Shown: piece by piece, positions 1,870-49,460 of the stretch | Position numbering within the stretch: position 1 is the first letter of the stretch | How the letters are laid out: every line of letters starts with the position of its first letter | Origin: Isurus oxyrinchus | Taxonomy: Eukaryota | Direction: 5' to 3' | Length of the DNA: 64,000 nt | Assembly: GCA_026770705.1 (NCBI GenBank) | Contig: JANJGN010000059.1 | Span: 2,170,001 to 2,234,000 of the forward strand | The notes under the pieces: generated by a model | Seen by the model: only the letters and a program-made list of their open reading frames with translations | Database searches by the model: none | Told to the model about the DNA's origin: nothing | Translations under genes and position numbers: made by a program

Positions 1870-2391
1870 GTAAGTTAGGATTGTTGTCCTTGAAGAAGGG
1901 AAAGCTGAGAGGATATTTGATATGGCTATTTAGAATCATGAGTAATCCTTATTAAACAAGGGGAAATGGTGCCTTTTCGTGAAAGCACTCAGGGTCAGGA
2001 AGCTCAGTACTAAAAAAAAAAACTGCGGATGCTGGAAATCCAAAACAAAAACAGAATTACCTGGAAAAACTCAGCGGGTCTGGCAGCATCGACCCTTCAA
2101 CAGAACACAGTATTAAGGTCATCAAGAAAAGAAACACTGATAACATTAAATATTATGTTTTCTCACAGCGAGTGGTTTGAATCTGTAAAACAGTGACTGA
2201 GAGCTGGTGGAGGCAGGTTGAAATGAAGCATTCATTCGGGAATTAGACTGTTATCTGAAAATGAAGAAAGTGCAGGTTACGGGGAGAAGGCTGGAGAATA
2301 GAATTTGGTGAGTTGCTCATTGAGAGAGTCAGTGCAGACAAAATGGGCCAAATGGCCGCCTTCAACTTGGTAACAGTACTGTGATTCTGTT
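1870..2391 (+). mobile_element. Old CR1-type 3' end fragment
   Basis: 'aagctgagaggatatttga', 'ttctcacagcgagtggtt', tail 'ctgtgattctgt'; uninterrupted copy at ~52245-52650. Confidence 0.7.
2012..2107 (-). mobile_element. Short Penelope pLTR-derived insertion (internally deleted)
   Basis: Reverse complement of the pLTR tail (gcggatgctggaaatccaaaacaaaaacagaattacctgg); flanked by cagtact/cagtatt; absent from the paralogous site at 52371. Confidence 0.88.
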
Positions 2392-2725: not shown

Positions 2726-2780
2726 ATCTTTCGAAAGAATAGGACCAGAGTTCAATTGGCCAATGATCTGCGAGCAACTC

Positions 2781-4320
2781 CCGGTAGAGCGATCGTCTCA
2801 GCTTGCTCCTGCCCCACAGAACTCATTTCTCGTTATCTTGACTCCCTTCTCTCTCCCCTTGTCCAGTCCCTTCCCACCTACATCCGTGATTCCTCTGACA
2901 CCTTACGTCACATCAACAATTTCCAGTTCCCTGGCCCCAACCGCTTCCTCTTCACCATGGACGTCCAATCCCTCTACACCTCCATCCCCCACCAGGATGG
3001 TCTGAGGGCCCTTAGCTTCTTCCTCGAACAGAGGCCCGAACAATCCCCATCTACCACTACTCTCCTCCGTCTGGCTGAACTTGTTCTCACGCTGAACAAT
3101 TTCTCCTTCAACTCCTCTCACTTCCTCCAAATAAAAGGTGTGGCTATGGGTACCCGCATGGGCCCCAGCTATGCCTGTCTCTTTGTGGGGTATGTGGAAC
3201 ATTCCTTGTTGCAGTCCTACTCCGGCCCCCTTCCACAACTCTTTCTCCGGTACATCGATGATTACTTCGGTGCCGCTTCATGCTCTCGTCGGGACTTGGA
3301 AAAATTTATTAATTTTGCTTCCAATCTCCACCCCTCCATCATTTTCACGTGGTCCATCTCTGACACTTCCCTTCCCTTCCTTGACCTCTCTGTCTCAATC
3401 TCTGGTGATAGACTGTCCACCAATATCCATTACAAACCCACCGACTCCCACAGCTACCTCGACTACAGCTCCTCACACCCCGCTTCCTGTAAGGACTCCA
3501 TCCCATTCTCCCAGTTCCTTCGCCTTCGTCGCATCTGTTCCGATGATGCTACCTTCAAAAACGGTTCCTCTGACATGTCCTCCTTCTTCCTTAACCGAGG
3601 TTTTCCACCGACGGTCGTTGACAGGGCCCTCAACCGTGTCCGGCCCATCTCCCGTGCATCTGCCCTCACACCTTCTCCTCCCTCCCAGAAACATGATAGG
3701 GTCCCCCTTGTCCTCACTTATCACCCCACCAGCCTCCGCATTCAAAGGATCATCCTCCGCCATTTCCGCCAACTCCAGCATGATGCCACCACCAAACACA
3801 TCTTCCCTTCACCCCCCTTATCGGCATTCCATAGGGATCGCTCCCTCCGGGACACCCTGGTCCACTCCTCCATCACCCCCTACTCCTCAACCCCCTCCTA
3901 TGGCACCATCCCATGCCCACGCAAAAGATGTAACACCTGCCCCTTCACTTCCTCTCTCCTCACCGTCCAAGGGCCCAAACACTCCTTTCAAGTGAAGCAG
4001 CATTTCACTTGCATTTCCCCCAACTTAGTCTACTGCATTCGTTGCTCCCAATGTGGTCTCCTCTACATTGGAGAGACCAAACGTAAACTGGGCGACCGCT
4101 TTGCAGAACACCTGCGGTCTGTCTGCAAGAATGACCCAAACCTCCCTGTCGCTTGCCATTTTAACACTCCACCCTGCTCTCTTGCCCACATGTCTGTCCT
4201 TGGCTTACTGCATTGTTCCAGTGAAGACAACGCAAACTGGAGGAACAACACCTCATCTTCCGACTAGGCACCTTACAGCCTTCCGGTCTGAATATTGAAT
4301 TCAACAACTTTAGGTCGTGA
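2781..4320 (+). pseudogene. PLE RT/GIY-YIG ORF, 5'-truncated copy 1
   Basis: ORF 2756..4267 (first ~8 codons are flank); 1-bp deletion near 4228 shifts RKLEEQHLIFRLGTLQPSGLNIEFNNFRS* out of frame. Confidence 0.92.
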
Positions 4321-4711
4321 GCTCCCTCCCCCATCCCCACCCCCTTTCTGTTTCCCCTTTTTCCCTTTTTTTTTCCCTATAAATTATATAGATTTTTCTT
4401 TTCCCACCTATTTCCATTATTTTTAAATATTTTAAAATCTTTTATGCTCCCCCCACCCCCACTAGAGCTGTACCTTGAGTGCCCTACCATCCATTCTTAA
4501 TTAGCACATTCGTTTAGATAATATCACCAACTTCAACTTTAACACCTATGTGTTCTTTTGTACCATTGTCGCTGACATCTTTTGATGATCTGCTTCTATC
4601 ACTGCTTGTTTGTCTACACAACCACCTCTCTCTCTCTCTCTATCTCTCCGCCCCCCCACACACACACCTTAAACCAGCTTATATTTCAACTCTTTCTTGG
4701 ACTCGAAATCA

Positions 4712-4750
4712 AGTTCTGTCGAAGGGTCATGAGGACTCGAAATGTCAACT
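4712..4750 (+). ncRNA. Minimal type I hammerhead-like motif in pLTR (CUGUCGA variant core)
   Basis: AGTT-CTGTCGA-A-GGGTC/atgag/GACTC-GAAA-TGTC-AACT: stem I, stem II, GAAA and GUC in hammerhead order. Confidence 0.75.
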
Positions 4751-4885
4751 CTTTTCTTCTCCGCCGATGCTGCCAGACCTGCTGAGTTTTTCCAGGTAAT
4801 TCTGTTTTTGTTTTGGATTTCCAGCATCCGCAGTTTTCTTTGTTTTTATCTCTGTGTTTAATTGACTGCCACTGCTCTTCAAGAA

Positions 4886-7640
4886 ATGCCTACCTCCTTG
4901 AAGAAGTTCTGTTCCTCTCTGCGACAAGACTTCCGTATCTCTCTGTTGCCTTGTTCACCTTCTTTGCTTTCCATTTTCCTCCTGGTGTTTGACAAGGTGT
5001 TTACTAAAACCCGCTTTCACAGCCATATCTCCTTTCTCAGTGACTGTCTCCGTCTCCGACTTACCCCACGTGGATTTCAACTGAAATTCCACCCCTCATC
5101 TTTCGAACCCACCCAGGATTACCGGTATCTCCGGGACATAAAACGTTTCTCAGACTGCTGTTCCCGTCACATTCTGAAATCCACACTCAGTGCCATGCGC
5201 CGCCATATGAACACACTCGACCTCTCCCTCCAGCAGCACCGCCGTACCCTTTTTCAAAGCTGCACATGCCCCCAGTTTCATTTTATCCTTTGGCTCATCC
5301 GACGCCTCAACAAGAAAGTTTTTCTCTTTCTCTCAAGTGCTAAGGAACGCAAGCTCCAACAACTCATTGACACCAACACCCATCTAGGACCCTCCACCCC
5401 AGCCTGTCCCTCCGTCCCCACCCCATCTTCCAATCCCAGCCCCAGCCGGGTATTCACTATACCCCCTGACCTTCCCCTCTCCGATGCTGAACGTTCAGTG
5501 CTCAGCAAAGGACTTAGTTTCATACCCTTACGCCCTCACCTCAATGAATTTCGGGCTCGGCATGATACTGAACTCCTCTTTCGCCGTCTTCGTCTCCGGG
5601 CTCACTTCTTTGGGCAGGAGTCCTCTCCCAGTTCAATGGATCCTTTTACCCATCTCCAATATTCTCCCTCCACCTGGACCCCTCCCTCTGGATTCTTACC
5701 TTCTCTTGATCTTTTCATTGAGAACTGTCGGCGCGACATTAGTCGTCTCAATTTCTCTGCTCCTCTCACCCATTCTAACCTGTCTCTCTCTGAACTTACT
5801 GCACTCCATTCTCTCAGGTCCAACCCTGACATTGTCATCAAACCCACTGACAAGGGTGGTGCTGTTGTTGTCGGGCGCACTGACCTCTACATCGCGGAGG
5901 CTGAGCGTCAACTCGCAGACACTTCCTCCTACCTCTCCCTGGACCATGACCCCACCACTGAACATCAAGCCATTGTTTCCAGGACTGTCACTGACCTCAT
6001 CTCCTCTGGGGATCTCCCTCCCACAGCTTCCAACCTGATAGTCGCCCAACCTCGGTCGGCCCGCTTCTATCTCCTACCCAAAATCCACAAACAGAACTGC
6101 CCCGGTAGACCGATCGTCTCAGCTTGCTCCTGCCCCACAGAACTCATTTCTCGTTATCTTGACTCCCTTCTCTCTCCCCTTGTCCAGTCCCTTCCCACCT
6201 ACATCCGTGATTCCTCTGACACCTTACGTCACATCAACAATTTCCAGTTCCCTGCTCCAACCGCTTCCTCTTCACCATGGACGTCCAATCTCTCTACACC
6301 TCCATCCCCCACCAGGATGGTCTGAGGGCCCTTAGCTTCTTCCTCGAACAGAGGCCCGAACAATCACCATCCCCCACTACTCTCCTCCGTCTGGCTGAAC
6401 TTGTTCTCACGTTGTACAATTTCTCCTTCAACTCCTCTCACTTTCTCCAAATAAAAGGTGTGGCTATGGGTACCCGCATGGGCCCCAGCTATGCCTGTCT
6501 CTTTATGGGGTATGTGGAACATTCCTTGTTGCAGTCCTACTCCGGCCCCCTTCCACAACTTTTTCTCCGGTACATCGATGATTACTTCGGTGCCGCTTCA
6601 TGCTCTCGTCGGGACTTGGAAAAATGTATTAATTTTGCTTCCAATCTCCACCCCTCCATCATTTTCACGTGGTCCATCTCTGACACTTCCCTTCCCTTCC
6701 TTGACCTCTCTGTCTCAATTTCTGGTGATAGACTGTCCACCAATATGCATTACAAACCCACCGACTCCCACAGCTACCTCGACTACAGCTCCTCACACCC
6801 CGCTTCCTGTAAGGACTCCATCCCATTCTCCCAGTTCCTTCGCCTTCGTCGCATCTGTTCCGATGATGCTACCTTCAAAAACGGTTCCTCTGACATGTCC
6901 TCCTTCTTCCTTAACCGAGGTTTTCCACCCACGGTCGTTGACAGGGCCCTCAACCGTGTCCGGCCCATCTCCCGTGCATCTGCCCTCACACCTTCTCCTC
7001 CCTCCCAGAAACATGATAGGGTCCCCCTTGTCCTCACTTATCACCCCACCAGCCTCCGCATTCAAAGGATCATCCTCCGCCATTTCCGCCAACTCCAGCA
7101 TGATGCCACCACCAAACACAACTTCCCTTCACCCCCCTTATCGGCATTCCATAGGGATCGCTCCCTCCGGGACACCCTGGTCCACTCCTCCATCACCCCC
7201 TACTCCTCAACCCCCTCCTATGGCACCATCCCATGCCCACGCAAAAGATGTAACACCTGCCCCTTCACTTCCTCTTTCCTCACCGTCCAAGGGCCCAAAC
7301 ACTCCTTTCAAGTGAAGCAGCATTTCACTTGCATTTCCCCCAACTTAGTCTACTGCATTCGTTGCTCCCAATGTGGTCTCCTCTACATTGGAGAGACCAA
7401 ACGTAAACTGGGCGACCGCTTTGCAGAACACCTGCGGTCTGTCTGCAAGAATGACCCAAACCTCCCTGTCGCTTGCCATTTTAACACTCCACCCTGCTCT
7501 CTTGCCCACATGTCTGTCCTTGGCTTACTGCATTGTTCCAGTGAAGACAACGCAAACTGGAGGAACAACACCTCATCTTCCGACTAGGCACCTTACAGCC
7601 TTCCGGTCTGAATATTGAATTCAACAACTTTAGGTCGTGA
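4886..7640 (+). pseudogene. PLE RT/GIY-YIG ORF, full-length copy 2 with two frameshifts
   Basis: ORFs 4862..6325 and 6277..7587 join across a 1-bp deletion near 6254 (cctgctcc vs cctggcccc in copy 1); second frameshift near 7548 shared with copy 1; first ATG at 4886. Confidence 0.92.
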
Positions 7641-8029
7641 GCTCCCTCCCCCATCCCCACCCCCTTTCTGTTTCCCCTTTTTCCCTTTTTTTTTCCCTAT
7701 AAATTATATAGATTTTTCTTTTCCCACCTATTTCCATTATTTTTAAATATTTTAAAATCTTTTATGCTCCCCCCACCCCCACTAGAGCTGTACCTTGAGT
7801 GCCCTACCATCCATTCTTAATTAGCACATTCGTTTAGATAATATCACCAACTTTAACTTTAACACCTATGTGTTCTATTGTACCATTGTCGCTGACATCT
7901 TTTGATGATCTGCTTCTATCACTGCTTGTTTGTCTACACAACCACCTCTCTCTCTCTCTATCTCTCCGCCCCCCCACACACACACCTTAAACCAGCTTAT
8001 ATTTCAACTCTTTCTTGGACTCGAAATCA

Positions 8030-8068
8030 AGTTCTGTCGAAGGGTCATGAGGACTCGAAACATCAACT
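8030..8068 (+). ncRNA. Minimal hammerhead-like motif in terminal pLTR
   Basis: Same motif with GAAA-CATC (CpG-decayed CGTC). Confidence 0.72.
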
Positions 8069-8294
8069 CTTTTCTTCTCCGCCGATGCTGCCAGACCTGC
8101 TGAGTTTTTCCAGGTAATTCTGTTTTTGTTTTGGATTTCCAGCATCCGCAATTTTCTTTGTTTTTATGGCCTATTTATGTTCCCTGGCATGAGCACTCCT
8201 ACAGGTTTGCAGAACTTGTTGATTCTAGTAAGGCTTTGACATGACTGAATTAGCCATTATTCTTTGCATTCTGATCCAACAGTGCTGTACTTTT

Positions 8295-11295: not shown

Positions 11296-13334
11296 ATGTA
11301 TTCAATCTCATTCTGAAGTTCATCACATAACCAAGGAGAGAGGTTTCCAACTTTCGACCCACCAATTCCTCATGAATCGATTTTAGTTTCAAACCTCGTG
11401 ATTATAGGCTAATTCAAAAGGAATACACCCAGCAGATGCATTAAGAGCAAATCGAATAGAAAATAACAAGAATACAATGCACCTATCCCCATCCTGTGTA
11501 TATGCTCGACTACAAGTCCTCATAATAGTCTTCAAACTTTTACCTCATCTTTCCAAAGCCCCTTGTGATTCAGGATGGTAAACTATTGATTTAAACTGTT
11601 TCATCCACAAAAAAAATGCTTCATTAAATAGCGGTGAGGAGAAATTTCAACCCCAATGTGTTTTATTTCTTTTGGCAAACCATATTTTGTAATAAATTTA
11701 GCCATCTCCTCCACAATTCTCCTTATGTAATATTTAGCAATGATATTGCATCTGGAAACCTTTAGAAACACCCATTACTGCCATCGTGTGATGATTTCCA
11801 CTTTTATTCCAAAAGAGAGGCCCCACAGGATCAATCATGGCCCTGGTAAAATGTTCCTCAAATGCCTGAATTGGAATTCAAGGTGCCTAATTAATCATTT
11901 CTTGTGGTTTCTGTTTCACCTCACATGTGTGGCATGTTCTACAGAATTTGACTCCTTTGCTTATGCCATCCAGGCCCATAAAAATGCTGTTGTATTTTTA
12001 CCTGTCTCCCTAACTCCGAAACATCCCCCATTGAAATGTTCAGAGCTATTCTGAGTATTTCAGTTTTCTATCCAGATAGTGTAAGAATCTGATGCACTTC
12101 CATTCATTTTTCATCCGTTGAAACTGGATAGGGTCTCCAATTCCATATTAATACCTTACCTTTAAGCTAATAACATTGTAGAAACCATTCTGCCTTTGTT
12201 GTCTGAGCAAGCTTTCTGATATAGCTGCTTTATTCGTGTATCCTTTTATTGTAGCTCTACCATCTGAACTGAACAAAACACATCGGTTTCATTCTCTACT
12301 TTCTTGCTCCCTGAACAATTCATCAAATATAGCATCAACTAATTGAACTTCAACAACTTTCCCAAGTGTTTAACTTCCTCTTCTTCCTCTTTCAACCTGT
12401 AAACTTGTGGCTTTTTAGCTGGACAATCTGAAAACAATCCTGGATGGTCTTTTTGCAACACCTCTGTTGAATTCACATCCACAGGCTGCTCGACTACCTT
12501 AGACATCACCCACACGTGTTAACCGCCTATATCATAATCTAATTAAATTTGAAACCTTATAATGAAGATTTTCCACTCTCCAACAATCACATCACTACTT
12601 CCCAGTTGCTTTTTATATTTACCTACAACAATGGAATAGTTTTAGCCTCTCCATTGACCACAGCTCGTATTGCTGCATTTGAATTTTTAATTTACAGGAA
12701 ATTCTGTTTTGTATATATTCTTTTAAAAAATACAGAACTGAAGGGGGTAAAACTTTCCATCTCAGAAAACATTAATTGAAATCTTGGAAAGAAGGAGAAT
12801 TTATCCCACATTTCTCCCCTATTCATAACACATCCATCACGTCTGTCTCCTGTCAGCGCAGGTTCCCCCCACGTGTGACTTCACCCATGACCCCGGTTTC
12901 CTCTGTTACCCCTTGGATCCACCGTCACTTCTGTTTAGCCCCATCACCTCTTTCACTCCTGTCATTCCTGCCTCGCCTCTCTCCGACCTGCAGTTTTTGT
13001 TATTTAATCTCTAATTCCTTTCATTGTATCCAAGGTCATCCCTTTAGTTATTTCAGGTCTATTTATATAAATACACCACTGGATGCCGTTCTATATCTCA
13101 CTAACTCCTGATGATTACCTTGCCACCAGCCTCATTAATAATGCATTGCTTGTTTCCCTTCCTGCAGTGAACTCAGTTATGATTTTGGATTTCCAACATC
13201 CACAGTTTTTTGTTTTTATCAGTTATGATTGTAGTTTTCAAGTGCAAAAATTGAGGGTTCTCCAAATGTTTTACTTGACAACTAGTGGCCATGGCAGTGG
13301 TGTATCTACTAGCCATTTTATTGCATCTGCTATG

Positions 13335-14167
13335 GCAGAGAGAGAGAGAGGATGTGATGAGATCCAGACTGAGGAAGACGCAAAGAGAGATTTAGAGAGA
13401 CAGAGAGAGAGAAACAGTGACAGAGAGAAAGATAGTACTATACTGACAAACACACACATACTTGGAAACACACACACAAAGAGAGAAAGGGAGAGAGAAA
13501 AATAGAGGGAGGTGGGAATGAATGAAATGGAGAGAGGCAAAGTAGAAGGGAGATAGAGAAAGAGAAGGAGGAAGTGCCAAAAACAGCAACGAGAGAGAGA
13601 GAGAGGGAGAAATACATAGAGAGAGAAAGAAATAGAGAGAAAGAGAGAGAGAGATGGAGGGGCGGGAGGAGAGAGAGTTCAAAAAGGGTGAGAGCGAAAT
13701 AGATTCCTGGAGAGAGAGAATGTGCGAGAGATCGAGACACACACGTATTCATAAATGCGCAGAATCACACAAACACAGAGAGAGTGAAAGAGAGAAAGAC
13801 AGAGGCAGAGGCAGCCATAGAGATAGAGAGTGAAAGAGTGGGGGAGGAAGAGAGACAGAGAGAGACACATAGAGAAATACAGAGATAGAAAGAGCAATAA
13901 AGAGGCAGAAAGGCAGAGTGAGAGAGAGAGAGAGACAGAGAAGAGAGGGATAGAGAGAGGTGAGATGGAAAGGGGAGAGAGTTGGAGAGTAATAAAGGTA
14001 GAAAGAAAGATAAAGGGACAATGAGAGAGAGAGAGAGAGAAAGAGATAGAGAGACAGTGAGAGTGAGAGAGAGAGAGAGACAGAGCCAGGGAGAAATAAC
14101 CAATACGAATTTTAATGAGATAGGGAGGCACAGAGACAGAAAAAAGCACAGATATACACATAGACAT

Positions 14168-14242
<75 letters not shown>

Positions 14243-16720
14243 CAGAGAAGGTGAGAAAGCAAGAGAGCCGAAGAGACTCAGAGACTGTCTCAGAGACAAA
14301 GTGTTAGTGAACAAGAGAGGCAGAGAGAAAAGGGCGGATAAAGTAGGCAGAGAGATGGACAAAGACAGAGAGGGACGGGGCTGTCATAGACATACGCATA
14401 GGGAAACACACAGGGAGAGGCAGGGTTAAGAAATATAGTCAGAGGCACAGATAAAGTGAGATAGATGAAGAGAGTGAGGGAGATCGACAGAGTGAGAGGG
14501 GAATAGACAAAGAGAAGTGGACAGAGATAGGAAGGCAAACAAAGAAAGAGTGTGAAAGAGATAGAGAGAGAAGTAGTGAGAAAGTGAGAGAAAGAAAAAG
14601 GGAGATAGGGAGAAATTGAAATAGGCAGGGTGAATGAGTGAGATGGAGAGAGACAGGTGGGGGAAGAGAGATAGAGATAGAGGGAGAGGAGGACAGAGAG
14701 AGAGAGAGGCAGAGAGAGAGAGAGAAAGTTGAAGAGACAGGGAGAATGAGTGGATGGAGAGAGGGACAGATGGACACAGGGAGAAAGCAAAATGGGGAGA
14801 GGAAAGGCAAGAGTCACAGAGAGAGAGAAAACGACAGAGGTGGACAGAAAGCAAAAATCAGCTAGAGAGGGAGAGAGAGTTAGAGAGAAAGACAGAGCAA
14901 GGGACAGAAATGAAGGGATGGAGGAGGTGAGAGACAAAGAGACAGAGGGAGAGAAGAGAAAATGAGGCAGAGGCAGAGGAAGCGACAGAGAGGGAGAGAG
15001 AGAGAGAGAGAAATGAAGAGAGACCAAGAGAGGCAAATGGAGGCTGAGAGAAAGAGAGAAAGAGATGCAGAGAGGGGAAGAGAGAGATAGAGGAATGGAA
15101 AGCGAAGAAGAAGAGAGAAAAAGGCAGAGAGAGAGAGACAGAGAATGCGAAATAGGAGGGGTGATGAAGAATGAAAGGGAAAGGGAGGCAGATAGATATA
15201 TAGAGTAGATAGAGAGATAGAGCGATACATAGATAGGTAGATTGGTAGGTAGTTAGATTGATAAATGGATAGATAGATAGATAGATAGATGGTTAGATAG
15301 ATAGAGCGATACATAGATAGATGGATAGATAGACAGGCAGACAATAAAATAGGGGGAGAGAGAGAGAAAGAGGCAGAGACATTGCAAGAAATAGAGAGGG
15401 AGATCGAATGAGATGGAGAGAAGCTCCAGTTGGAGACAGAAAGAGAGAGACAGCTGGACAGAGAGAGATCGAGGCAGGGGACGAGAGAGAGAGCAAGAGA
15501 AGGAGATAGAAAGAGAAAGGGAGAGATAGAGAGATAGAGATAGAAAGGAAGAGAAAGAAAGTTGAAGAGGCACACAGGGAGAGTAAGTGGAATGGATAGA
15601 GAGAGACAGAAGAAGATAGTGGGAGAACGAGAAGTAGGAAAGGGAGAGACAGACAGACACAGAGATAAAAAGAGACAGAGGGAGACAGAGGGCATCAATC
15701 AGCGAGAGAGAGTGAGTGAGAAGGAGATAGAGAGATAGATGGGTGGAGAGAGTAAGAAAGAAACAGAGGGAAAAAGGGACAGAGAGAGTGAGAGCAAGGT
15801 TTACGCAGAGACATAGAGGGACACTCTGAGAGACAATGGGACACAGAGAGAAGGCGAGAGGGGGATAGAGAGAGGCAGAGACTCAAAATCGGAAAAGATT
15901 AGGAGACAGGGAGAAAAGGGGGACTGTGCAAGAGAGACAAAGAGAATACAGCAGAGAGTGTCTGTGTGTGTGTGTGAGAGAGAGATTGAGAGACACAGAC
16001 AGAGGGAGGAAGACAAAAAGTGGGAGTGAACGAGATAGATAAATTGAGTTAATGTGTGTGGGAGAGGGGATGAGAGTGAATGGAAGAGAGGAAACGATAC
16101 AAAGTGAGAGACAGACAGTGAATTAGACAAAGGGGGACTTATTGAGTGAGATAACGAGGCAGAGAGATGAAGAGAGATGGACAGATTTAGAAATGGAGGG
16201 AGGCAGAAAGTGAGAGTGATGGAGGTAGATAAATTGAGTGAGTGTGTGAGAATGAAAGAGAAAGAGAGTGAAAGGGATGGCGAGAGAGAAAGAGAAATTT
16301 ATGCACAGTGAGAGTCAAGCAGTGAATTGAACAAAGGATGACTTATTGAGCGAGACGAGGAAAGACAGAAATAGAGAGATTTATAGAGAAAGAGAGAGAG
16401 AGTGAAAGAAGGGGCAGGGGAGAGATAGCTTGGAGGGAGAGAGAAAGCAAGACAGAAAGAGACAGAGTGAGAGAGGAGAGAGAGAGAGAAAGGGAGATAT
16501 AGATTGAAAGGGTAAGGGAGATAGATCGATAGATAGATTGGTAAATATATGGATTTATATATATATATATATATATTGTATATATATATATTGAGAGAGA
16601 GAGAGAGAGTGGACGGGAGAAGAAGAGAATGAGAGGGAAGCAAACAAGTTCGGTTGAAGAATAATGGAGAGGGAGCGAATGCGTGAGATGGAGAGAGATA
16701 CAGAGAGCAAGAGACAGTCG
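13335..16720. repeat. ~3.4-kb GA-rich polypurine low-complexity tract with (CA)n, (GATA)n and (AT)n islands
   Basis: Visible composition; (CA)n ~14170-14238, (GATA)n ~15190-15330, (AT)n ~16555-16590. Confidence 0.95.
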
Positions 16721-17197
16721 CATTTGATTCAGGTGTGGAATAATGTTTTGGGGCAGTTTAAAAAGTGCCTGACATTTTATTCATTATTTTTTGTGATGAA
16801 TTGCCAGCCCTCATCCATTTTAATCGGATAACTGAATGTTTAGAGTTAAAGAGGGCAGTAACTTCCCAAAGAAGCATTAAACAGAGTGGAGGAAGGCACT
16901 CTAACATTTGGAATTTCATGAATGAGTGGTAGCCCTCAAGTCAGTAAAACCACTAAAACAACATGATGCTGAGAGATGGGACTGATGGTATATTCCCTGT
17001 TTGATTACAGCTGCTGTTTTTATTAGTTAATTAATGTGATCAGTAGAAACATGTATTTGTAACATGGCAGCTCCATCTAAAAATCAACATATTCTTTCAC
17101 TGAAATCAAAATCATAATTTGTTTCTTCATATTTAAAGAAATAATAATAATTTGAACAATGTTGCAATTACAACATCCCTGAGGTGATCCCACAGGG

Positions 17198-18399: not shown

Positions 18400-21300
18400 G
18401 ACAATAATACGTAGAAGCAGAAGTAGGTAATTACACACATGGAGCCCGCTGCACCATTCAATGAGATCATGGCTGATCTGATAATCCTCAACTCCACTTT
18501 CCTGCCTTTTCCCCATAACCCTTCATTCCTTACTGATTAAAATTCTGTCTATATCAGCCCCAAAGAGACGTAACGACCAAGACCCTACAGCCCTCAAAGT
18601 GAAATAATTCCACAGATTCACTCCCCTCTGAGAGAAGAAATTCCTCCTCATCTCAGCATTAAACAGGCGGCCCTTTTACTCTGAAATAATGCTGTATGGC
18701 CTTGGGCTCACCGAGAAGTGGAAACAACCTCTCAGCATGTATGCTATTAATCCCCCTAAAACATAAGGAAGTAAGAACTAGGAGCAGGAGTAAGCAATTC
18801 AGCCCCTTGAACCTGCCCCGCTGTTCATTACCATGATGGCTGATCTCAGTTCGGCCTCAAATCCAATTTCCCTCCCTCTCCCCATAACCTTTCAGCCCAT
18901 TACTAAATAAATATCTGTCTACCTCCTCCTTAAATTTATTCAGCATCCAGGCATCCACTGCAATCTAAGGTAGTGAATTCCAGATTCACTATCCTTAGAG
19001 AAAAATAATTCCTCCTCATCTCTGATTCAAATCTACCGCCCCTTTCACTAAATCTATGCCCTCTCATTCTAGAATGCCAAAGAAGGGGAAACATTCTCTC
19101 CACGACTACTTTGTGTATCCCCTTTAGCATATCATATACCTCAATTCGATCTCCTCTCATCCTTCTAAATTTTGAATCTTATATGCTTCAATAAGGTCGC
19201 TTATCATTCTTCTGGAATTCAATGAGTTCAGATCCATTCTACTCAAACTCTCTTCATAAGAAAATTCCTCCATACCCAGGATTAATGAGGTGACCCTCCT
19301 GTGGACTGCCTCCAAAGCCAGTTAATCATTCCTTAAATAGGGAACCAAAATTGTTCCTGGCACTCTAATTGTGGTCTAGATAGAGCTGTGTATAAGTTTG
19401 GCCAGAGTCGAAGGGTCATGAGGACTCGAAACGTCAACTCTTTTCTTCTCTGCTGATGCTGCCAGACCTGCTGAGTTTTTCCAGGTTATTCTGTTTTTGT
19501 TTTGGATTTCCAGCATCCGCAGTTTTTTTGTTTTTTTCCCTATATTTATGCTCTCATCCTTTTGAAATGAATACCAACATTTTATTTGCCTTCCCTGTTA
19601 CTTGCTGAGCTTGTGTGCTAGCATTTTGATATTAATGTAAGTGGTCTCCCAAATCCTTTTTTGTTGCAGCTATCTGCACTCTTTCTCTATTGAATAATAT
19701 TCAGCTTCTCTTCTCTTCCTGCCAAAGTGCATAAATTCATATTTCCCCACATCGTGTGCATCTGCCAAGTATTTGCCCACTCACCTAATCATTCCACATC
19801 CCACTGTATACCTTTTGTGTCATACTCAACATTGACCATTGCAAAGATTGTTGTGTTATCCGAAAACATGGCGATGATATATTCCATTCCCCATCCACGT
19901 CATTAAAATATATTGTAAAGAAGTATGGCTGCAGCACTGATCTTTGTGGAAATCCACTAGTTACAGGTTACCACCCTGAAAATGCCTCTCTTACCCCAAC
20001 TCTCCATCTTCTATTAGGTAGCCACTCCTCTATCCAGTCTAGTACACCACCCCATCACCATGGGCTCTTATTAAATAGCCTTATGTTCGGTACCTGATCA
20101 AACACTGTTGGGAAAATGAAATATATTACTTCAACCGGTTGTTCTTTATCCATCATGCTTGCTACCATCTGAAATAATTCTAATTAAATCTCCAGGCATG
20201 AATTCCCCTTCATGAAACCATGCTGACTCTATTTGATTATATTATGCAGTGCTAATGTTCTGTTGTTACATTCTTTATTAAACATTCTTACATATTCCCA
20301 ATGACAGGTGTTTATTTAACTGGAATATAGTTACCTGATTTTTGGGTCCTGCACTTTTTGCATAAGGGTGTTTAATTTGGCAGATTTGAAATTTTCTTGG
20401 ACTTTTCCATAGCATAAATATTTTTGGAGGATCACTACCAGTGCATCCACTATTTGCTTCATGCTTCGTTTCATGCTCTAGGATGCAACTCATTCGGTCC
20501 GGGGGACATAAGCGCTATTGGCCCCAAGAATTGCATGACTACCTCGTCACCAGTGAGACTTGTATTATTTCCTCCCCCCATGTTTGCCATTGATTATTAA
20601 GTGTTTCTGGAATGCCATTAGTGTTTTCTACCGTCAAGAGAGATGCAAAGCATTTATTCAACTCCTCTGCCATTTCCTGGTTCCCATTGTTATTTCACCA
20701 ACCTCATTTTCTAACCGGCCTGTGCTCACTTCTGCCTCTCTCCTTCTTTTCATATATTTAAGTAAGCTTCTTCTGTCCGTTTTTTTCATTACTTGCGCTG
20801 TTACGCTCACTGTTTATTTTCTCCCTCTTTCTTATATTTTTGTCATATTTTGTTGGCTTTTATGACTTTCCTATTCCTCTGGCTTACCACTAATCTTTGC
20901 CATGTTGTAGCTTTTTTTTTAACTTTTAGCTTGATTCCAACCGTAACTGCCGTGGTTAACCGCAGTTTGTTTGTTCCTTCCTCGAATCCTTCTTCCTCAG
21001 TGGTATATGTCTTAGTTGCGAATCATGTACTATTTACTGAAATGTCTGCCGTTGTGCATGTCATGCCTTTTCTACGAAGCCCCTTTCCCATTCCAGTCCA
21101 GTCAACTCTGCTCTCAATCCTTTGTAATAATGTTTGATAATTTAGCACAGTTGTTTCCAACCCAAGTTCCGAATACTACTCGCTAGAGGTAAAGAGGCAT
21201 CAATTTTGACTTTGTACAATTATCTCCTTTTGACCGTATTTGCTGTATTTCCTGATGTCTGTAAGCTCTGCCTCTTCTTCTCTCACTTTGGGTATTGTGA

Positions 21301-22614: not shown

Positions 22615-23520
22615 AAGGAGGACACAGAATTAAGTAAGAAGACGAGTGCTGAATATGATACAAATAGTCTACAGACGGATTGAAATAGGCTCAGTGAGAG
22701 GGAAAAACTTGGCATATGGAATATAATGTGGGAAGATATGAGGTTATGCACTTTGGCAAGAAGAATAGAGGTGCTGAATATGATGTGAAGGAAGAAGAAC
22801 TGCAGAAATCTGCAGCACAGAGGAATTTGCAAGAATCCATAAGAGCTAACATACAAATGCAGTGGGTAATAGGGAAGGCAAATGGAATACTGGCCTTTAT
22901 TTCAAAAGGGATGGAGTATAAACATAGGCAAACCTTTCTAAGACTACACAAGGTATTAGTTGGACCACATCTAGGATCCTGTGAACAGTTTTGTTCCCTT
23001 TATCTAAGGAAAAATATATTGACATTGGAGGCAGCCCAGATAATGTTCACTAGGTTGATCGTAGGTATGGAGGGATTTTCTTATTTCTAGAGATGGAGTA
23101 GGTTGGGCTTGTGCCCATTGGAGTGCAGAAAGTTGGGAGGAGATCGAATTGAAGCATCAAAGATCCTTATGGAGCTTCACAGGGTGAATGCTGAGATGTT
23201 GATTCCTCTTGTGGGAGAGCCTAGGAGCAGAGTGCATGATCTCAGATTACGGAGACGTCCATTTAAGGCAGAGCTGAGGAGGAATTTCCTCCCTCAGAGG
23301 GTAGTGAATCTTTGCATTGTTGTCTTCTGAGGGGGGTAAAGGCTGGGGCGTTAAATCTATGCAATACTGAGATGGGCAGATCTTTAATCTGTAATGGAAC
23401 TGAGGTTTATGAAGACAAGGGCTGAATTTAGAGTTGAGAATTGTGAATCAGCCATGATATCATGGAATGGCGGTGCAGATCCTTCCAGCTGAATGGCCTA
23501 CTTCTGCTCATAGGTCTTAT
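22615..23520 (+). mobile_element. CR1 ORF2 3' fragment
   Basis: MEYNVGRYEVMHFGKKN, IGKANGILAFISKGMEYK, RRNFLPQRVVNL. Confidence 0.88.
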
Positions 23521-27740: not shown

Positions 27741-28769
27741 CAACTCCCATCGCGTTCCAGCCCACATGCTGATACAGTTGTAGATTCCTGGGAATTTTAA
27801 ACTACAATGTTGGTCCAATTAATTGAGTTGGCAACATATTTCAAAGTGTCATCTCTCAGCACATTCTAAAAAATCAAGACTGGTAAATAATCTTTGGCAT
27901 TTTAACTATTTGATTAACTTTGAATCTTCCAATCATTACATAATTGAGTGTCAACTTATCTAATTCAGTTACCAATAGTCACTTCTCTAAACATTTTCAA
28001 ATATAAGGGCCAGTATGCTTAATGAGATTGCGTTCTGTCCATCTGGAAGAAATCTTCATTTTTAATTCAGCATTAAGTAAATATGGCATCTTAACAATCT
28101 CAGCTAACTACAGTGAATATAATGCAAAATGTCACAAAATAATGTCATTGCTGAAGATACAGGGCATTCTATTAAATTCTGCTGAATGAAAAATTGCTAC
28201 TTCACCCTGGTTAAAATATTCAGTCACATCCAACATCTGCTCCTCTTCAGCTTTTGGCGTAAGTACAAGACATGTTACCACTGAACATTTATCTCTCTCT
28301 GTTCCACTTTCCAAAATCAAAAACACACTTTGCAAGTGAAAAGTGAAATGCTTGAGTTTCTCGCAAGTCAGTCAATGTGTTCGCTGCTCACAATAGACTG
28401 TGGGAGAGAGATAGATGAATAGAGAGAGAGAGAGGGATGTGATGCGATCCCAGGCTATTGATATGTAACTGAGCATTATCTCATTCCCAGACGGCGATTT
28501 GGACCACGGGGACACGGTGGGTGAGAGAAACTGACAAAATCTGGTCCCTGTTTGATGTGTGGGGTGGTGGGGGGTTGGTGGTGCCTGGTTCTGATCTTGA
28601 TAGGAATGGTCTGATTCAGAGGGGAGACCGTGTGTGTGTTTGTGAGGGGTGGGGGGGTGAAGGAGTGGGGGTGGAGGTCTGATCCAGAACGGGGTATGAT
28701 CATGAGGGAGATCTAACACTGTGGGCTGTGGTGCTTTCCTCCTTAGCGCTGTCTGACCCTTTGGGAACT

Positions 28770-29853
28770 GAAGGTGAAGGAATCCTTAGGAGGAAGTGAC
28801 CAGAATATGATAGAATTTTCCGTGCAATTTGAGAGGAAAAAGCTCGAATCAGATGTAACGATACTACAGTTGAATAAAGGCATCTACAGAGGCATGAGGG
28901 AGGAGCTGGCCAGAATTGACTGGGAGATCAGCATAGCAGGAAAGACAGTGAAACAGCAATGGCAGGAGCTTCTCGGAGTGATTTTGGAGACACAGCAAAA
29001 ATTCATCCCTAGGAACAAGAAGCATACTAAAGGGAGGATGAGGCAACCATGGCTGACAAGAGAAGTCGGGGACAGCATAAAAGCTAAAGGAAAAGCATAC
29101 AATGCGGCGAAGAGCAGTTGGAAACCAGGAGATTGGGAAGTCTACAAAGACAAACAGAGGACAACTAAAAAAGAAATAAGGAGGGAGTAAATTAAATATG
29201 AGGGTAAACTAGCCAGTAACATAAAAGAAGATTGCAAGAGATTTTTTAGTTATACGAAGGGTAAGAGAGAGGCAAAAGTGGACATTAAGCTACTGGAAAA
29301 TGACGCTGGAGAAGTAGTAGTGGGGAACAAAGGAATGGTGGAGGAACTGAATTGGTACATTGCATCAGTCTTCACGGTGGAAGAAGCGATTATCATCCCC
29401 AAAGTTCAAGAGAGTCGGGGGACAGAGGTGAGTATTGTGGTCAGTACCAAGGAGAAGGTGCTAGGAAAACTGCAAGGTCTGAAGGTGGATAAATCACCTG
29501 GACCAGATGGATTACACCCCAGAGTTCCAAAGGAGATAGCTGAAGAGATAGTGGAGGCGTTAGTGGTGATCTTTCCGGAATTACTGGAGTTAGGGAGGGT
29601 CCAAGAAACTGGAAAATCGCTAATGTAACCCCCCCCCCCACCCCGTGTAAGAAGGCAGTGAGACAAAAGGTGGGAAATTACAGGCCATTTAGCCTGACCT
29701 CAGTCGTTGGTAAGAGTTTAGAGTCCATTATTAAGGATGAGATTTCAGAATACTTGGAAGTGCTTGGTAAAATAGGGCAAAGTCAGAATGGTGTCATCAA
29801 GGGGAGTTCATGCTTGACAAATCTGTTAGAATTCTTTGAGGAGGTAACGAGTA
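28770..29853 (+). mobile_element. CR1 ORF2 internal fragment (duplicated at ~34531-35604)
   Basis: ESLGGSDQNMIEF, QPWLTREV, KSPGPDGLHPRV, GNYRPFSLTSVVGK, SCLTNLLEFFEEVT. Confidence 0.92.
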
Positions 29854-30032
29854 AATATTGCGGTTACAATTGCTGCATTCCAGTCTACAATTTTAATTTC
29901 TAACACCACCGCCCCCATCCTCCATCTCTCCTCGCACCCTTTATCGGCCCTGAAACCCTGTGCTTGTTGCCTGGATCAGGCACGGAAAAGGTCAAAACAT
30001 TAATATCCTGGATCTTCTCCTTTCTCTGACAG

Positions 30033-31153: not shown

Positions 31154-31155
31154 CG

Positions 31156-31297
31156 AGATAAAAACAAAGAAAACTGCGGATGCTGGAAATCCAAAACAAA
31201 AACAGAATTACCTGGAAAAACTCAGCAGGTCTGGCAGCATCAGCGGAGAAGAAAAGAGTTGACGTTTCGAGTCCTCATGACCCTTCGACAGAACTTC
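31156..31297 (-). mobile_element. Penelope pLTR-derived element at the duplication junction
   Basis: Reverse complement of 4711-4852, including an intact hammerhead-like motif at 31257-31295. Confidence 0.93.
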
Positions 31298-34200: not shown

Positions 34201-37019
34201 TGATGCGATCCCAGGCTATTGATATGTAACTGAGTATTATCTCATTCCCAGACGGCGATTTGGACCACGGGGACACGGTGGGTGAGAGGAACTGACAAAA
34301 TCTGGTCCCCGTTTGATGTGTGGGGTGGTGGGGGGTTGGTGGTGCCTGGTTCTGATCTTGATAGGAATGGTCTGATTCAGAGGGGAGACTGTGTGTGTGT
34401 TTGTGAGGGGTGGGGGGGTGAAGGAGTGGGGGTGGAGGTCTGATCCAGAACGGGGTATGATCATGAGGGAGATCTAACACTGTGGGCTGTGGTGCTTTCC
34501 TCCTTAGCGCTGTCTGACCCTTTGGGAACTGAAGGTGAAGGAATCCTTAGGAGGAAGTGACCAGAATATGATAGAATTTTCCGTGCAATTTGAGAGGAAA
34601 AAGCTTGAATCAGATGTAACGATACTACAGTTGAATAAAGACAACTACAGAGGCATGAGGGAGGAGCTGGCCAGAATTGACTGGGAGATCAGCATAGCAG
34701 GAAAGACAGTGAAACAGCAATGGCAGGAGCTTCTCGGAGTGATTTTGGAGACACAGCAAAAATTCATCCCTAGGAACAAGAAGCATACTAAAGGGAGGAT
34801 GAGGCAACCATGGCTGACAAGAGAAGTCGGGGACATAAAAGCTAAAGGAAAAGCATACAATGCGGCAAAGAGCAGTTGGAAACCAGCAGATTGGGAAGTC
34901 TACAAAGACAAACAGAGGACAACTAAAAAAGAAATAAGGAGGGAGTAAATTAAATATGAGGGTAAACTAGCCAGTAACATAAAAGAAGATTGCAAGAGAT
35001 TTTTTAGTTATACGAAGGGTAAGAGAGAGGCAAAAGTGGACATTAAGCTACTGGAAAATGACGCTGGAGAAGTAGTAGTGGGGAACAAAGGAATGGTGGA
35101 GGAACTGAATTGGTACATTGCATCAGTCTTCACGGTGGAAGAAGCGATTATCAAGTTCAAGAGAGTCAGGGGGCAGAGATGAGTATGGTGGTCAGTACCA
35201 AGGAGAAGGTGCTAGGAAAACTGCAAGGTCTGAAGTTGGATAAATCACCTGGACCAGATGGATTACACCCCAGAGTTCCAAAGGAGATAGCTGAAGAGAT
35301 AGTGGAGGCGTTAGTGGTGATCTTTCCGGAATTACTGGAGTTAGGGAGGGTCCAAGAAACTGGAAAATCGCTAATGTAACCCCCCCCCCACCCCGTTTAA
35401 GAAGGCAGTGAGACAAAAGGTGGGAAATTACAGGCTAATTAGCCTGACCTCAGTCGTTGGTAAGAGTTTAGAGTCCATTATTAAGGATGAGATTTCAGAA
35501 TACTTGGAAGTGCTTGGTAAAATAGGGCAAAGTCAGAATGGTGTCATCAAGGGGAGTTCATGCTTGACAAATCTGTTAGAATTCTTTGAGGAGGTAACGA
35601 GTAAATGTTGCGGTTACAATTGCTGCATTCCAGCCTACAATTTTAATTTCTAACACCACCGCCCCCGTCCTCCATCTCTCCTCGCACCCTTTATCGGCCC
35701 TGAAACCCTGTGCTTGCTGCCTGGATCAGGCACGGAAAAGGTCAAAACATTAATATCCAGGATCTTCTCCTCTCTCTCTGGCAGTTAATTTACTGGGAAT
35801 TGTGATCCTGTGCCGTGGAAAGTGTGGACTCTCTACCTGCACCACTCGCTACATGGTGGCCATGGCGACGGCGGATCTCCTGGTCGTTATCGCAGACCCC
35901 ATACTGAACCAAATCATTACTTATTATTTCCCAGTGACTTTCCTGGACATCACCCATGTGTGTCGTATACGCGCTGTCCTGCTGCTTGCAGCCACGGACT
36001 GTTCCGTCTGGTTCACCGTCAATTTCTCCTTTGACCGATTTGTGGCCATTAGTTGCCAGAAGCTGAAAAGAGAATATTGCACCGGGAAAACAGCGGCTGT
36101 GGTTCTAGCGACAACCGGTATCCTGCTCTGTTTAAAGAACGTCCCCTGGTACTTCTCATTTGAAGCTACAGAGATAATCGACTATATTCCGCGTTTCTGT
36201 CAGACAAAGCCAAGCATTTATACTGCTCCCGGATGGGTTGGATTTTCCTGGTTTGAGAAGGTTTTCACCCCATTGCTCCCATTCGGTTTAATTCTGCTGA
36301 TCAACGCTCTGACAGTCAGACACATTTTAGTGACCAGTCGAGTCCGGAAGGGACTGAGGGCTCAGAGTAAGGGAGAGAATCGCAGTGACCCAGAGATGGA
36401 GAGCCGGAGGAAGTCTATGATTTTACTCTTCACCATATCCGGCACCTTCATCCTCCTATGGTCGGTGTTTGTTATAAAATTCTTCTATTTGGATGTGAGA
36501 GGATTACTTTACCTCACCGTTTCTGAATATATATTACAAGCAAGTCGGATTTATGCTGCGGAGTTTAAGTTGCTGCACAAATACATTTATTTATGGGGTC
36601 ACTCAGTCCAAGTTCAGAGAGCAGATCAAGAATGTGGTAATATACCCGGTTACGTTAATGATTCAATTAATGAAGAAAATGACTGACAGCTGCCCCAGCC
36701 AATCACATATCTCCTCCCGCTGGCGGACAGTTGCGTAAACCAAAAAGGGAGCTCCGCATGATGACTGACACCATCCTCAGCCAATCCGAGAGATCTACCC
36801 CTTACTGACAGTTGGCTTTACCAATCAGCGGATCAGCCCCATGACTGACACACACGTCAGCCAATGGGGCAGCTTCAGCTTTTCACCCACAGCAGCCTCA
36901 GACATTCGAGATAAAAACAAAGAAAACTGCGGATGCTGGAAATCCAAAACAAAAACAGAATTACCTGGAAAAACTCAGCAGGTCTGGCAGCGTCGGCGGA
37001 GAAGAAAAGAGTTGACGTT
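31299..37019 (+). repeat. Tandem segmental duplication, unit 2
   Basis: Collinear with 25522-31266, with scattered substitutions and small indels. Confidence 0.96.
35785..36738 (+). pseudogene. Duplicated GPCR exon 2B, frameshifted at the start of TM7
   Basis: Acceptor 'ctggcAG' at 35783-35784; extra A at ~36539 (ttacaagcaagtc vs ttacagcaagtc) moves NTFIY/helix 8 to another frame (ORF 36553..36738); premature stop at 36686. Confidence 0.85.
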
Positions 37020-37118
37020 CTGTCGAAGGGTCATGAGGACTCGAAACGTCAACTCTTTTCTTCTCCGCCGATGCTGCCGGACCTGCTGAGTTTTTCCAGG
37101 TAATTCTGTTTTTGTTTT
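36908..37118. mobile_element. Inverted (fold-back) Penelope pLTR insertion with 14-bp TSD
   Basis: ~74-bp inverted arms (~36946-37019 / 37045-37118) around the hammerhead core; TSD agcctcagacattc at 36894-36907 and 37119-37132. Confidence 0.92.
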
Positions 37119-37762
37119 AGCCTCAGACATTCAACTGACTGTTGCCACAGCCAATCAAAATGTCTTTTCGGCTGACTGACAGTGGCTTCATCCAATCAAG
37201 GAGCGGCAGTCTTGTGCTCACTGTTACATTGGGCACTCAGGATGTTCTTCTTCTGTTCCAACAGCCGCCGCAGTAAATCAAAGATAATCAACTGCTGACT
37301 GAGTGTTCAGCGTTTAATCTCATTACACCCGCTGGCTGTAAACAGATTCATCCAATCACGGTGCTGCAAGCAGTGACTCAGAAAGTTCAGCCAATCAGCG
37401 AGCTTCAGCCTGTGACCAACCAAGGTTTCAGCCCATCAAGGAATTGAACCCGACAGCCGCAACATCCAATCAGCAAGCTCCGACCAATGACTGACTGGAT
37501 TTCAAACAACCAACAATCCCCAGCTAATTCCCACCCTCTAGCCCAGAGTATCATCCAATCATAGCGTTCAATCTTTGACTGACAGTTCTTACAACACAAG
37601 GTGGGTCCCCAAATCATGCCGGGATCTGCCGTGTCGGATTGGAGTGTTTCAGTTTCAGACTGACAGCTATAATATCAAATCGGAGAGATGCGACTGCGCT
37701 CGAATTTACTTAAATCCGACCAAAAGCCGTGCGTATTGCTCAGCTCCGTCCAGCCTTTCGCT

Positions 37763-37893
37763 ATTTCAACTCTTTCCTGGACTCGAAATCAAGTTCTGTC
37801 GAAGGGTCATGAAGACTCGAAACGTCAACTCTTTTCTTCTCCGCCGACGCTGCCAGACCTGCTGAGTTTTTCCAGGTAATTCTGTTTTTGTTT
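37763..37893 (+). mobile_element. Penelope pLTR-derived insertion with 12-bp TSD
   Basis: TSD cagcctttcgct at 37751-37762 and 37894-37905; matches 4683-4813. Confidence 0.93.
37792..37830 (+). ncRNA. Minimal hammerhead-like motif (CUGUCGA core, intact GAAACGUC)
   Basis: AGTT-CTGTCGA-A-GGGTC/atgaa/GACTC-GAAA-CGTC-AACT. Confidence 0.75.
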
Positions 37894-39480: not shown

Positions 39481-40870
39481 AAATAAAAGCAAAAAAAAAA
39501 AGAACTGCGGATGCTGGAAATCCAAAAAAAAAAGAAAAATACCTGAAAAAACTCAGCAGGTCTGACAACATCTGTGGAGAGGAACAAAGTTAACGTTTCA
39601 ACCCTTCAACAGAACTAAGGAAAAATAGAAAGAGGTGAAATATAAGCTGGTTTAAGGGGGGAGAGTCCAGTAGAGCTGGATAGAGATCCAGTGATAGGTG
39701 GAATAAGCCAAAATATGTCATAGACAAAAGGACAAAAAGGTGTTGAAGGTGGTGGTATTATCAAAGCAATGTGCTAATAGATGATATTAAGGGTAGAAAG
39801 CAGAATGAGCAAGGTACAGGTAGCCCTAGTCGGGGTGGGGTGGGGGTAAGGGATCCAAATAGGCTCAAAGGGAGAGATAAAACAATGGATGGAAATACAT
39901 TTAAAAATAATGGAAATAGGTGGGAACATAAAAATCTATATAAATTATTGTTAAAAATGGGGATCGGAAAGGGTTGGGGATGGAGGAGAGAGTTAATAAT
40001 CTAAAATTGTTGAACTCAATTTTCAGTTTATAAAGCTGTAAAGTGCCTAGTCAGAAGATGAGGTGCTGTTCCTCTAATTTGCGTTGAGTTTCACTGGAAC
40101 ATTGCAGCAAGCCAAGGACGGACATGTGGGCATGACAGCAGAGTGGAGTGTTGAAATGGCATGCGACAGGGAGGTCTGGGTCATGCTTGTGGACAGAGTG
40201 AAGGTGTTCTGCAAAGCGGTCACCCAGTCTGCGTTTGGTCTCTCCAATGTACAGGAAACCACATTGCGAGCTGCAAAAGCAGTAGACTAATTTGAGGGAA
40301 GTGCAAGTGAAGTGCTGCTACACTTGAAAGGAATATTTGGACCCTTGGACGGTGAGGAGAGGGGAAGTAAAGGGGCAGGTGTTGCACATTCTGCGGTTGC
40401 ATGTGAAGGTGCCAAGGGAGGGGGTTGAGGTGTATGGGGTGATGGAAGAGTGGACCAGGGTGTCATGGAGGGAATGATCCCTGCGGAATGCCACCGGGGG
40501 GTGAAGGGAAGATGTGTTTGGTGGTGGCATCATGCTGGAGGTCGCAGAAATGGTGGAAGATGATCCTTTGAATGCGGAGGCTGGTAGGGTGATAAGCGAG
40601 GGCAAGGGAGACCCTATTATGGTTCTGGGAGTGAGTGAAGGTATGAGGGTGGATGTGCAGGAGATGGGATGGACACGGTTGAGGACCCTGTCAACCACCG
40701 AGGCTGGAAAACCTCGGTTAAGGAAGAAGGAAGACATATCAGAGGAACTGTTTTTGAAAATGGCATCATCAGAACAGATGTGACGGAGGCAATGGAACTG
40801 AGAGAATGGGATAGAGTCCTTACAGGAAGCGGGGTGTGAGGAGCTGTAGTCGAGGTAACTGTGGGAGTCA
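39481..40870 (-). mobile_element. 5'-truncated Penelope element, older subfamily
   Basis: Minus ORF MSSFFLNRGFP...CNRRMCNTCPFTS; GIY-YIG region 40020-40300; pLTR tail 39481-39616 with hammerhead stem II collapsed. Confidence 0.93.
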
Positions 40871-49237: not shown

Positions 49238-49460
49238 TAATGCGGGTGCTGAAAATCTGAAGCAAAAAATATATGCTTGGAAACTCAGCAGTTCTGACAA
49301 CATCTGTGGAGAGAAAGACAATATTAGTGTATGGACTCCGCATGACTCCTCTTGGGAGCTCTGAAGAAGAGTCATACGGACTCGAAACTTTAACTCAGTC
49401 TTTCTCTCCACACATTCTGTCAGACCTGTTGAGATTTTCCAGCATTTTTTTTTTGTTTTT
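49238..49460. mobile_element. Old fold-back Penelope pLTR element
   Basis: Imperfect inverted arms (ggaaactcagcagttctgacaacatctgtggagagaaagac / gtctttctctccacacattctgtcagacctgttgagattttcc) around a hammerhead motif. Confidence 0.8.
49356..49396 (+). ncRNA. Minimal hammerhead motif with canonical CUGAAGA core
   Basis: GAGCT-CTGAAGA-A-GAGTC/atacg/GACTC-GAAA-CTTT-AACTC. Confidence 0.7.

Follow-up and report, generated by a model that had tools for sequence, protein, structure and literature searches.

The pLTR of a Penelope-like element (PLE) in the window, by which the whole 64-kb stretch of DNA analysed is meant, carries a hammerhead-like motif with U at core position 6 in place of A. PLE hammerheads have been proposed to cut tandem precursors, and in the available parts of two papers core mutants do not impede insertion in vitro and whole clades are without them (PMC11167929, PMC8557442). 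The locus raises the question of what the changed core has meant for its element: whether it still cuts, whether an upstream GGACTCGAAA gives it another fold, or whether the lineage has spread with little or no cleavage.

The element and its surroundings

The window holds a partial tandem of the element, consisting of a 5'-truncated copy (2780..4850, +), a full but frameshifted ORF (4886..7640, +) and a second pLTR (7998..8167, +). The truncated copy is 98.8% identical to 6101-8167, and its 3' end is the pLTR bearing the motif at 4712; the remainder of this pLTR and the tail occupy 4751..4855 (+). The ORF covers RT, a CX4CxxC linker and GIY-YIG. At locus L321, an intact ORF of 918 aa is flanked on each side by U6 cores; it matched RVT_1 (E 6.9e-08), and its GIY-YIG match (E 8.9e-04, 20 bits) was under the cut-off of 22.6. 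The translation contains a CPRKRCNTC linker (CX2-5CxxC) and VYCIRCSQCGLLYIG (CxxC within the GIY-YIG motif), and the element shows partial tandems with the pLTR, inverted pLTRs and an optional tail. By its ORF and linker motifs the carrier is classed as an autonomous, EN+ PLE of the Neptune/Nematis type, the type being assigned because of the CX4CxxC linker as defined in the available text of PMC8557442.

L321 and L322 (G000:C1:12156644-12166648) are tandem arrays of near-identical full-length units with a period of ~3.3 kb, and one unit of the L321 array has the intact ORF. Just before the 5' junction at 2780, a 116-nt piece of flanking DNA is present as an inverted copy (2173-2288 / 2611-2726, 98%), which may have been made by local templated capture during insertion. 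Elsewhere the window has three related single-exon rhodopsin-family GPCR ORFs (29954-30985, +; 35754-36686, +; 53291-54223, -; 7tm_1 E ~1e-17), the first two within an apparent ~5.8-kb local duplication, and long CT/GA- and CA-rich simple-sequence tracts (13000-16800, 45900-47600 and 62200-64000). LINE-like RT fragments were seen by eye near 22700-23100, 28750-29630 and 34500-34950; a Pfam search of one such piece gave no match.

Structure of the motif and its copies

The minimal type I hammerhead-like motif lies at 4712..4750 (+) and was characterized by its sequence and by per-position and pair counts. Stem I is formed by AGUU (4712-15) and AACU (4747-50). The core CUGUCGA (4716-4722), with U6 at 4719, is followed by an extra A (4723), and stem II is formed by GGGUC (4724-28) and GACUC (4734-38), followed by GAAA (4739-42). 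Positions 4743-46 read CGUC in most copies and UGUC in the 4712 copy, and a hammerhead cut is predicted after 4746.

In the 64-kb window, CUGUCGA cores were also found at 8034 (8034-8040, in the downstream pLTR, whose upstream motif is at 8017-8026), 31285-31291 (-), 37020 and 37796. The sequence-only reading had reported U in place of A6 in the young copies of the window, and the same U6 core was found at each copy that it listed; the short young copy at 19407..19548 (+) has U6 and an incomplete core, since it begins at G5 and is without C3-U4. The remaining short young copies lie at 37762..37893 (+), which has the upstream motif and a variant loop II, and at 31155..31296 (-), beginning at stem I; an inverted pair of young pLTR pieces lies at 36908..37118, with its direct arm from 37017. 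The upstream GGACTCGAAA, which had been ascribed to all young copies, was present at 4699, 8017 and 37779 and absent from the 5'-truncated copies at 19407, 31257 and 37017. Related copies with CUGUUGA were recovered, as described before, at 2097-2103 (-) and 39606-39612 (-); in both, deletions extend across stem II or further. The second belongs to an older S1-type copy (39491..40869, -) with a stem II deletion, and it indeed lacks the upstream motif. The older family with canonical CUGAAGA was likewise found where it had been placed (core 49361-49367, in an inverted pair at 49241..49459).

The palindromic stem III attributed to such motifs was borne out by most U6 copies and not by the two largest copies of the window. 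Positions 15.1-16.1 are self-complementary, with CGTC in 28/43 U6 copies, and the remainder are mostly explained by CpG decay, which has hit the ACGU palindrome at 4743 (TGTC) and 8061 (CATC).

Among 49 late copies, C3 U4 G5, G8 A9, G12 A13 A14, A15.1-U16.1 and H17 were each kept in 44-49, a few G8 and G12 having been lost through CpG decay. Position 6 was U in 47 of the 49, so that the A6 of the minimal PLE hammerhead is lacking. The stem I and stem II pairs of U6 copies were intact, and the sole change was one-sided, from A-U to G-U. The identification of a minimal type I hammerhead of a PLE pLTR, with A6U fixed in the young family, stands. An Rfam scan of the 64-kb window gave no hammerhead match at E up to 5. 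The gap to MFE of dimers was 7.3-15.3 kcal/mol in A6 families and 7.9-12.4 kcal/mol in U6 families, and the families were not separated.

Abundance and age of the U6 family

Genome-wide counts were made as exact pattern matches; common words are skipped by DNA similarity search. A young 30-mer with positions 6-7 left open had 84,905 exact matches in the genome and its reversed control had 0, which shows that the A6U family is not a chance match. Positions 6-7 were UC in 77, UU in 22 and CU in 1 of the first 100 matches listed. The A6 version of the same 30-mer had 144 matches, about the one-base background, as A9 changed to any of the three other bases gave 380. A looser pattern for canonical CUGANGA relatives had 10,871 matches.

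A sample of 189 copies with intact upstream sequence, taken from the window, from seven blocks of 200 kb and from loci selected by pattern, was divided into 11 subfamilies, with 21 unclassified. Divergence from the consensus (CpG excluded) was 11% for CUGAAGA, 8% for CUGAUGA (3% in a small side branch), 3.5% for the first CUGUUGA, 1.6-5% for later CUGUUGA and 0.9-1.2% for CUGUCGA, values biased low by the pattern-selected loci, which also bias the core counts of this set. From oldest to youngest, the age ladder ran CUGAAGA, CUGAUGA, CUGUUGA, CUGUCGA. A tree of the endonuclease region, which is independent of the pLTR and included the 72 copies long enough, gave the same ladder from A6 to U6, at weak support (4/67 inner branches starred). 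CUGUUGA as mere CpG decay of CUGUCGA was rejected for S1-S6, in which U7 is the consensus; it holds for some young copies.

In the 200-kb blocks alone, 101 of 187 hits spanned the motif. When these were classed by a marker outside the motif, U6 was found in the 47 of 49 late copies given above and A6 in 38/48 early copies, with 4 unclassified; the single late A6 copy came from a block overlapping an A6 hit that was already known. In the seven subfamilies that followed, A6U is fixed throughout. U6 was also the majority in contigs assembled from sequencing runs of organisms A, B and C, where A made up 14%, 13% and 9% of depth; the RNA status of these runs is uncertain, and their contigs show neither ends nor expression. 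At position 4719, no other base made up 5% or more in four runs. U6 therefore predates the split of the three organisms.

Several of the rare A6 copies (L064, L073, L085, L089, L090) belong to inverted pairs in which the opposite arm has U6, and so represent a change in a single arm, not a lineage. The side branch S0b (canonical A6, 3 copies; L033-L060, L231-L320) has GGGUC and GUC changes as in the U6 lineage, by parallel change or recombination; its copies were all too short for inclusion in the endonuclease tree.

Other bases at position 6

The transitional context had 3,679 matches, and among the first 100 of them the base at position 6 was U 74 times, A 15 times, G 6 times and C 5 times. 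Genome-wide, 418 matches had G or C at this position, beside 6,223 with any base, and the first 100 of the 418 listed comprised 64 G and 36 C. At the control sites, all three alternatives together gave 99 matches at U4 and 98 at position 7. The downstream marker of G6 copies was of both A6-like and U6-like forms. Given the excess over both controls and the two marker forms, the G6 and C6 versions, too, were probably amplified; the excess could also stem from a local hot spot of mutation.

A tentative extension of this result, which we would not call likely, is that Penelope elements of this host group repeatedly turn their own ribozyme down, G, C and U masters having competed, U having won and the fold having been kept. 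If so, position 6 would be a selected dial at which self-cleavage is traded for copy number, and the hammerhead would be a brake on (or a parasite of) the element and not a needed processing step.

Origin of the upstream motif

A TATA-like box, TATATTTC, lies at 4680..4687 (+) and is a putative promoter element; in 11/11 subfamily consensuses it begins 28-32 nt before A4712, the start of short copies. Between the box and the motif lies a fast-evolving spacer (4688..4711, +) that holds GGACTCGAAA (4699-4708). The sequence-only reading had taken GGACTCGAAA for a duplicated half-core. Comparison of subfamilies showed instead that the spacer was built stepwise and not by one-step duplication, from GGATTCACCTAG through GGACTCACTCAAG (891 matches) and GGACTCGAACTCAAG (19,069) to GGACTCGAAATCAAG (19,588). 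GAAA is present only in the final form GGACTCGAAATCAAG, and the sister subfamily of equal size (19,069 vs 19,588) reads GAAC. No upstream GAAA motif was found in S1-S7b. In the contigs of organisms A, B and C, GAAC made up 40%, 99.8% and 88% of depth. The last four spacer changes each raised the identity with the sequence just downstream, a drift possibly copied by RT slippage.

It is very improbable that an alternative or pseudo-dimeric hammerhead is completed by GGACTCGAAA, or that GGACTCGAAA makes up a selected hairpin by which the core is turned off. The S9 10-mer does match the 3' strand of stem II together with GAAA, and the four successive changes did bring the spacer closer to the downstream sequence; however, GGACTCGAAA arose long after U6, S1-S7 are without it, the 19,069 sister copies and nearly all of the depth in B and most of that in C have GAAC, and the motif lies upstream of the probable RNA start. 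The sequence offers a single CUG-GA strand, so that U6 would stay in any fold. Spacer-core pairing beyond that of shuffled spacers was found in none of the 11 subfamilies (best 41/300), and the monomer folds were unremarkable (4683-4760, z 0.62; 37763-37840, z 0.49). An anti-core hairpin formed by the spacer was strong in one sequence window, yet within the shuffle range. The upstream GGACTCGAAA is likely promoter-spacer DNA only.

Ends of copies

The main 5' end of short copies is at 4711..4713 (+), that is, A4712 and its neighbours, a probable transcription start or RT stop. Among 71 late copies, 32 extended past -40; of the 39 truncated copies, 22 began between -8 and +5 from C3 and 2 at +28..+34, the position expected if the RNA was cut. 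Among 99 old copies, 20 extended past -40, and of the 79 others 32 began at -8..+5 and 6 at +28..+34; the arms of inverted pairs were entered separately, and some old hits come from divergent families, in which the alignment start is not the true end. Genome-wide starts were counted with patterns preceded by two letters that depart from the consensus, of which the first was set to G; there were 85 starts at the cut site, as against 644 at -4 (including some older-subfamily starts at -5), 268 at -5 and 251 at -3. In the young family no excess of starts was found at the cut site (301 vs 284 at a site 3 nt on); the old family had 236 at the cut site vs 138, figures confounded by double mutations. 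The 3' ends were 95-99 nt after C3 in 19/49 copies and 130-139 nt after C3 in 20/49. Copies start at the first bases of the motif and stop within the tail rather than at the cut site.

From the copy ends and the TATA spacing we infer a transcription start at ~A4712; fold-back junctions could also make a 5'-end pile-up. A G was found before 8/12 old copies at -4, partly at fold-back junctions. A cap-derived G at the 5' ends was considered and was not enriched in young copies at -4.

Since old A6 copies also have no clear cut-site peak, the ends point to uncut templates and not to a loss caused by A6U. Conceivably, the motif was non-cutting in vivo before A6U, and position 6 drifted, or was selected as promoter DNA directly behind the start site, and hitch-hiked with a successful master. 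The old A6 copies, which share the start site (32 vs 6 of 79), agree with this, as does a C-A mismatch in stem I of the oldest local family (14/21 A6 copies). But double-sided stem II changes were seen in 2 old A6 copies among 65 examined, which indicates that the fold was selected at some time, and drift alone does not predict three non-A bases in excess at position 6 and not at U4 or position 7. We consider this explanation improbable.

Sequence changes after A6U

Along S1-S4-S6-S7b-S8-S9, 21 changes were counted in the 24-nt spacer, 5 in the 39-nt motif, 7 in the 15 nt after the motif, 3 in the 44-nt tail and 0 in the 20 nt ending with the TATA-like box. The five motif changes were U7C, one stem II change (A-U to G-U), two changes in loop II, and U17C, by which the GUU cut triplet became GUC. 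All five were at tolerated positions and spared core and pairing (P ~0.01, post hoc and from small consensus sets), so the motif is not simply decaying.

These changes, one of which yields a GUC triplet, and the 21 changes of the adjoining spacer would fit a working but attenuated U6 core, in which slow or protein- or Mn2+-assisted dimer cutting holds the rest of the motif. Precedents appear in the available parts of two papers: the PLE hammerhead of the anole needs its protein in order to cut (PMC11167929), and a natural A6C hammerhead keeps activity, near normal in Mn2+ (PMC7151607). However, the non-ribozyme tail is equally conserved, copies do not end in excess at the cut site, and recent copies show little difference in the number of changed adenines between core (380 and 266) and loop (433 and 719), a comparison confounded by context. 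Minimal PLE hammerheads, moreover, are described in the available text as cutting poorly or very slowly already with A6, even as dimers (PMC4209133). In a deep scan of another hammerhead, as far as the available part of that paper goes, single and double mutants of CUGA, except the C3-G8 swap, had low activity and were not rescued within two mutations (PMC9901934). An attenuated core is a possibility, but rather an unlikely one.

In S4-S7 (e.g., L011), which have U6-U7, the core strand GUUGA is exactly complementary to UCAAC across the cut site. Such a helix would hide the scissile bond, and one of its pairs was later broken by U7C.

Discussion

The explanation that we favour, and hold to be probable, is a pLTR hammerhead crippled by A6U in the master lineage, with the element having kept spreading because RT likely copies uncut RNA. 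A lineage still transposing with little or no cleavage was the second option of the sequence-only reading, and it appears to be the best fit to the spread of U6 and to the copy ends. No published cleavage figure for A6U itself was found in the literature searched. By analogy, A6U likely cripples self-cleavage: besides the CUGA mutants of the deep scan, A6C costs large factors in Mg2+, according to the available parts of PMC7151607 and PMC3088659. The spread after A6U suggests that jumping does not require cutting.

Under the favoured explanation, transcription would begin at ~A4712, roughly 30 nt past the TATA-like box, and the RNA 5' end would not include the upstream GGACTCGAAA. The element protein would prime in the tail, ~95 or 135 nt past C3, and read through the motif, so that a cut in the 3' copy would take away the priming site and a cut in the 5' copy the first 35 nt with the cap. 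Cutting would bring no benefit in cis, and A6U would further lower the activity of a dimer ribozyme that is slow to begin with, which would cost the element nothing and might even profit it. The rest of the motif would likely be kept for another role (transcript start or RNP fold) or for weak residual cutting. According to the available text of PMC2377424, Penelope of D. virilis has an internal promoter without a TATA box, so the TATA reading has no precedent from that element.

The shark motif resembles the metazoan PLE minimal hammerheads of Cervera and De la Pena 2014 (PMC4209133) in its pLTR position, the absence of stem III, the short stem I, the extra base between A9 and G10.1, the G10.1-C11.1 pair, CG at 15.2-16.2 and thousands of solo copies. 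It differs in its core, which is CUGUYGA here, whereas the only core change reported in the available part of that paper is the U3-A8 swap; the descriptor given there would miss U6. The Bcep176 hammerhead (PMC3088659, PMC7151607; both available in part) is likewise naturally changed at position 6 and keeps the rest of its core. In Bcep176 the base is C, in a single phage sequence that was shown to cut slowly, whereas here it is U, fixed in a transposon family of >80,000 copies and recognized from sequence.

With the Poseidon PLE of Anolis carolinensis, as presented in the available part of PMC11167929, the shark family shares a tail with two end points, a template that appears to be unprocessed RNA and the absence of cut-site ends. 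In vitro, insertion by the anole PLE protein was unaffected by hammerhead mutants, and none of the reads stopped at the cut site. The Anolis hammerhead is canonical and protein-assisted and belongs to the Poseidon clade, while the shark family has U6 and is of the Neptune/Nematis type; the shark lineage may be viewed as the natural, in-genome counterpart of the hammerhead dispensability seen in vitro. High copy number without a canonical ribozyme is also a feature of Naiad and Chlamys PLEs; the available text of PMC8557442 describes Naiad PLEs as thriving without canonical hammerheads, and its authors consider that hammerhead loss may even help. Those are deep clades with an N-terminal EN, whereas here one base has changed in one recent lineage, with subfamilies from before and after. 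As the dispensability of PLE hammerheads has already been suggested in print, the shark family is a good natural experiment and not a new kind of system. Our literature search found no natural U6 hammerhead and no shark PLE hammerhead; published variant lists may include position-6 variants. The available text of PMC6765202, PMC6155905, PMC11014351, PMC10085705 and bioRxiv 2026.07.22.740005 gave no cause to interpret the family differently.

Tens of thousands of new copies of the element were made after A6U. The most abundant hammerhead-like family of the genome escapes searches that insist on a strict core, with 84,905 matches for one U6-family 30-mer against 10,871 for the looser canonical pattern. 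The role of PLE hammerheads is a debated question, which this shark family addresses; since natural A6, G6, C6 and U6 versions occur in one lineage with an intact ORF, that role is directly testable.
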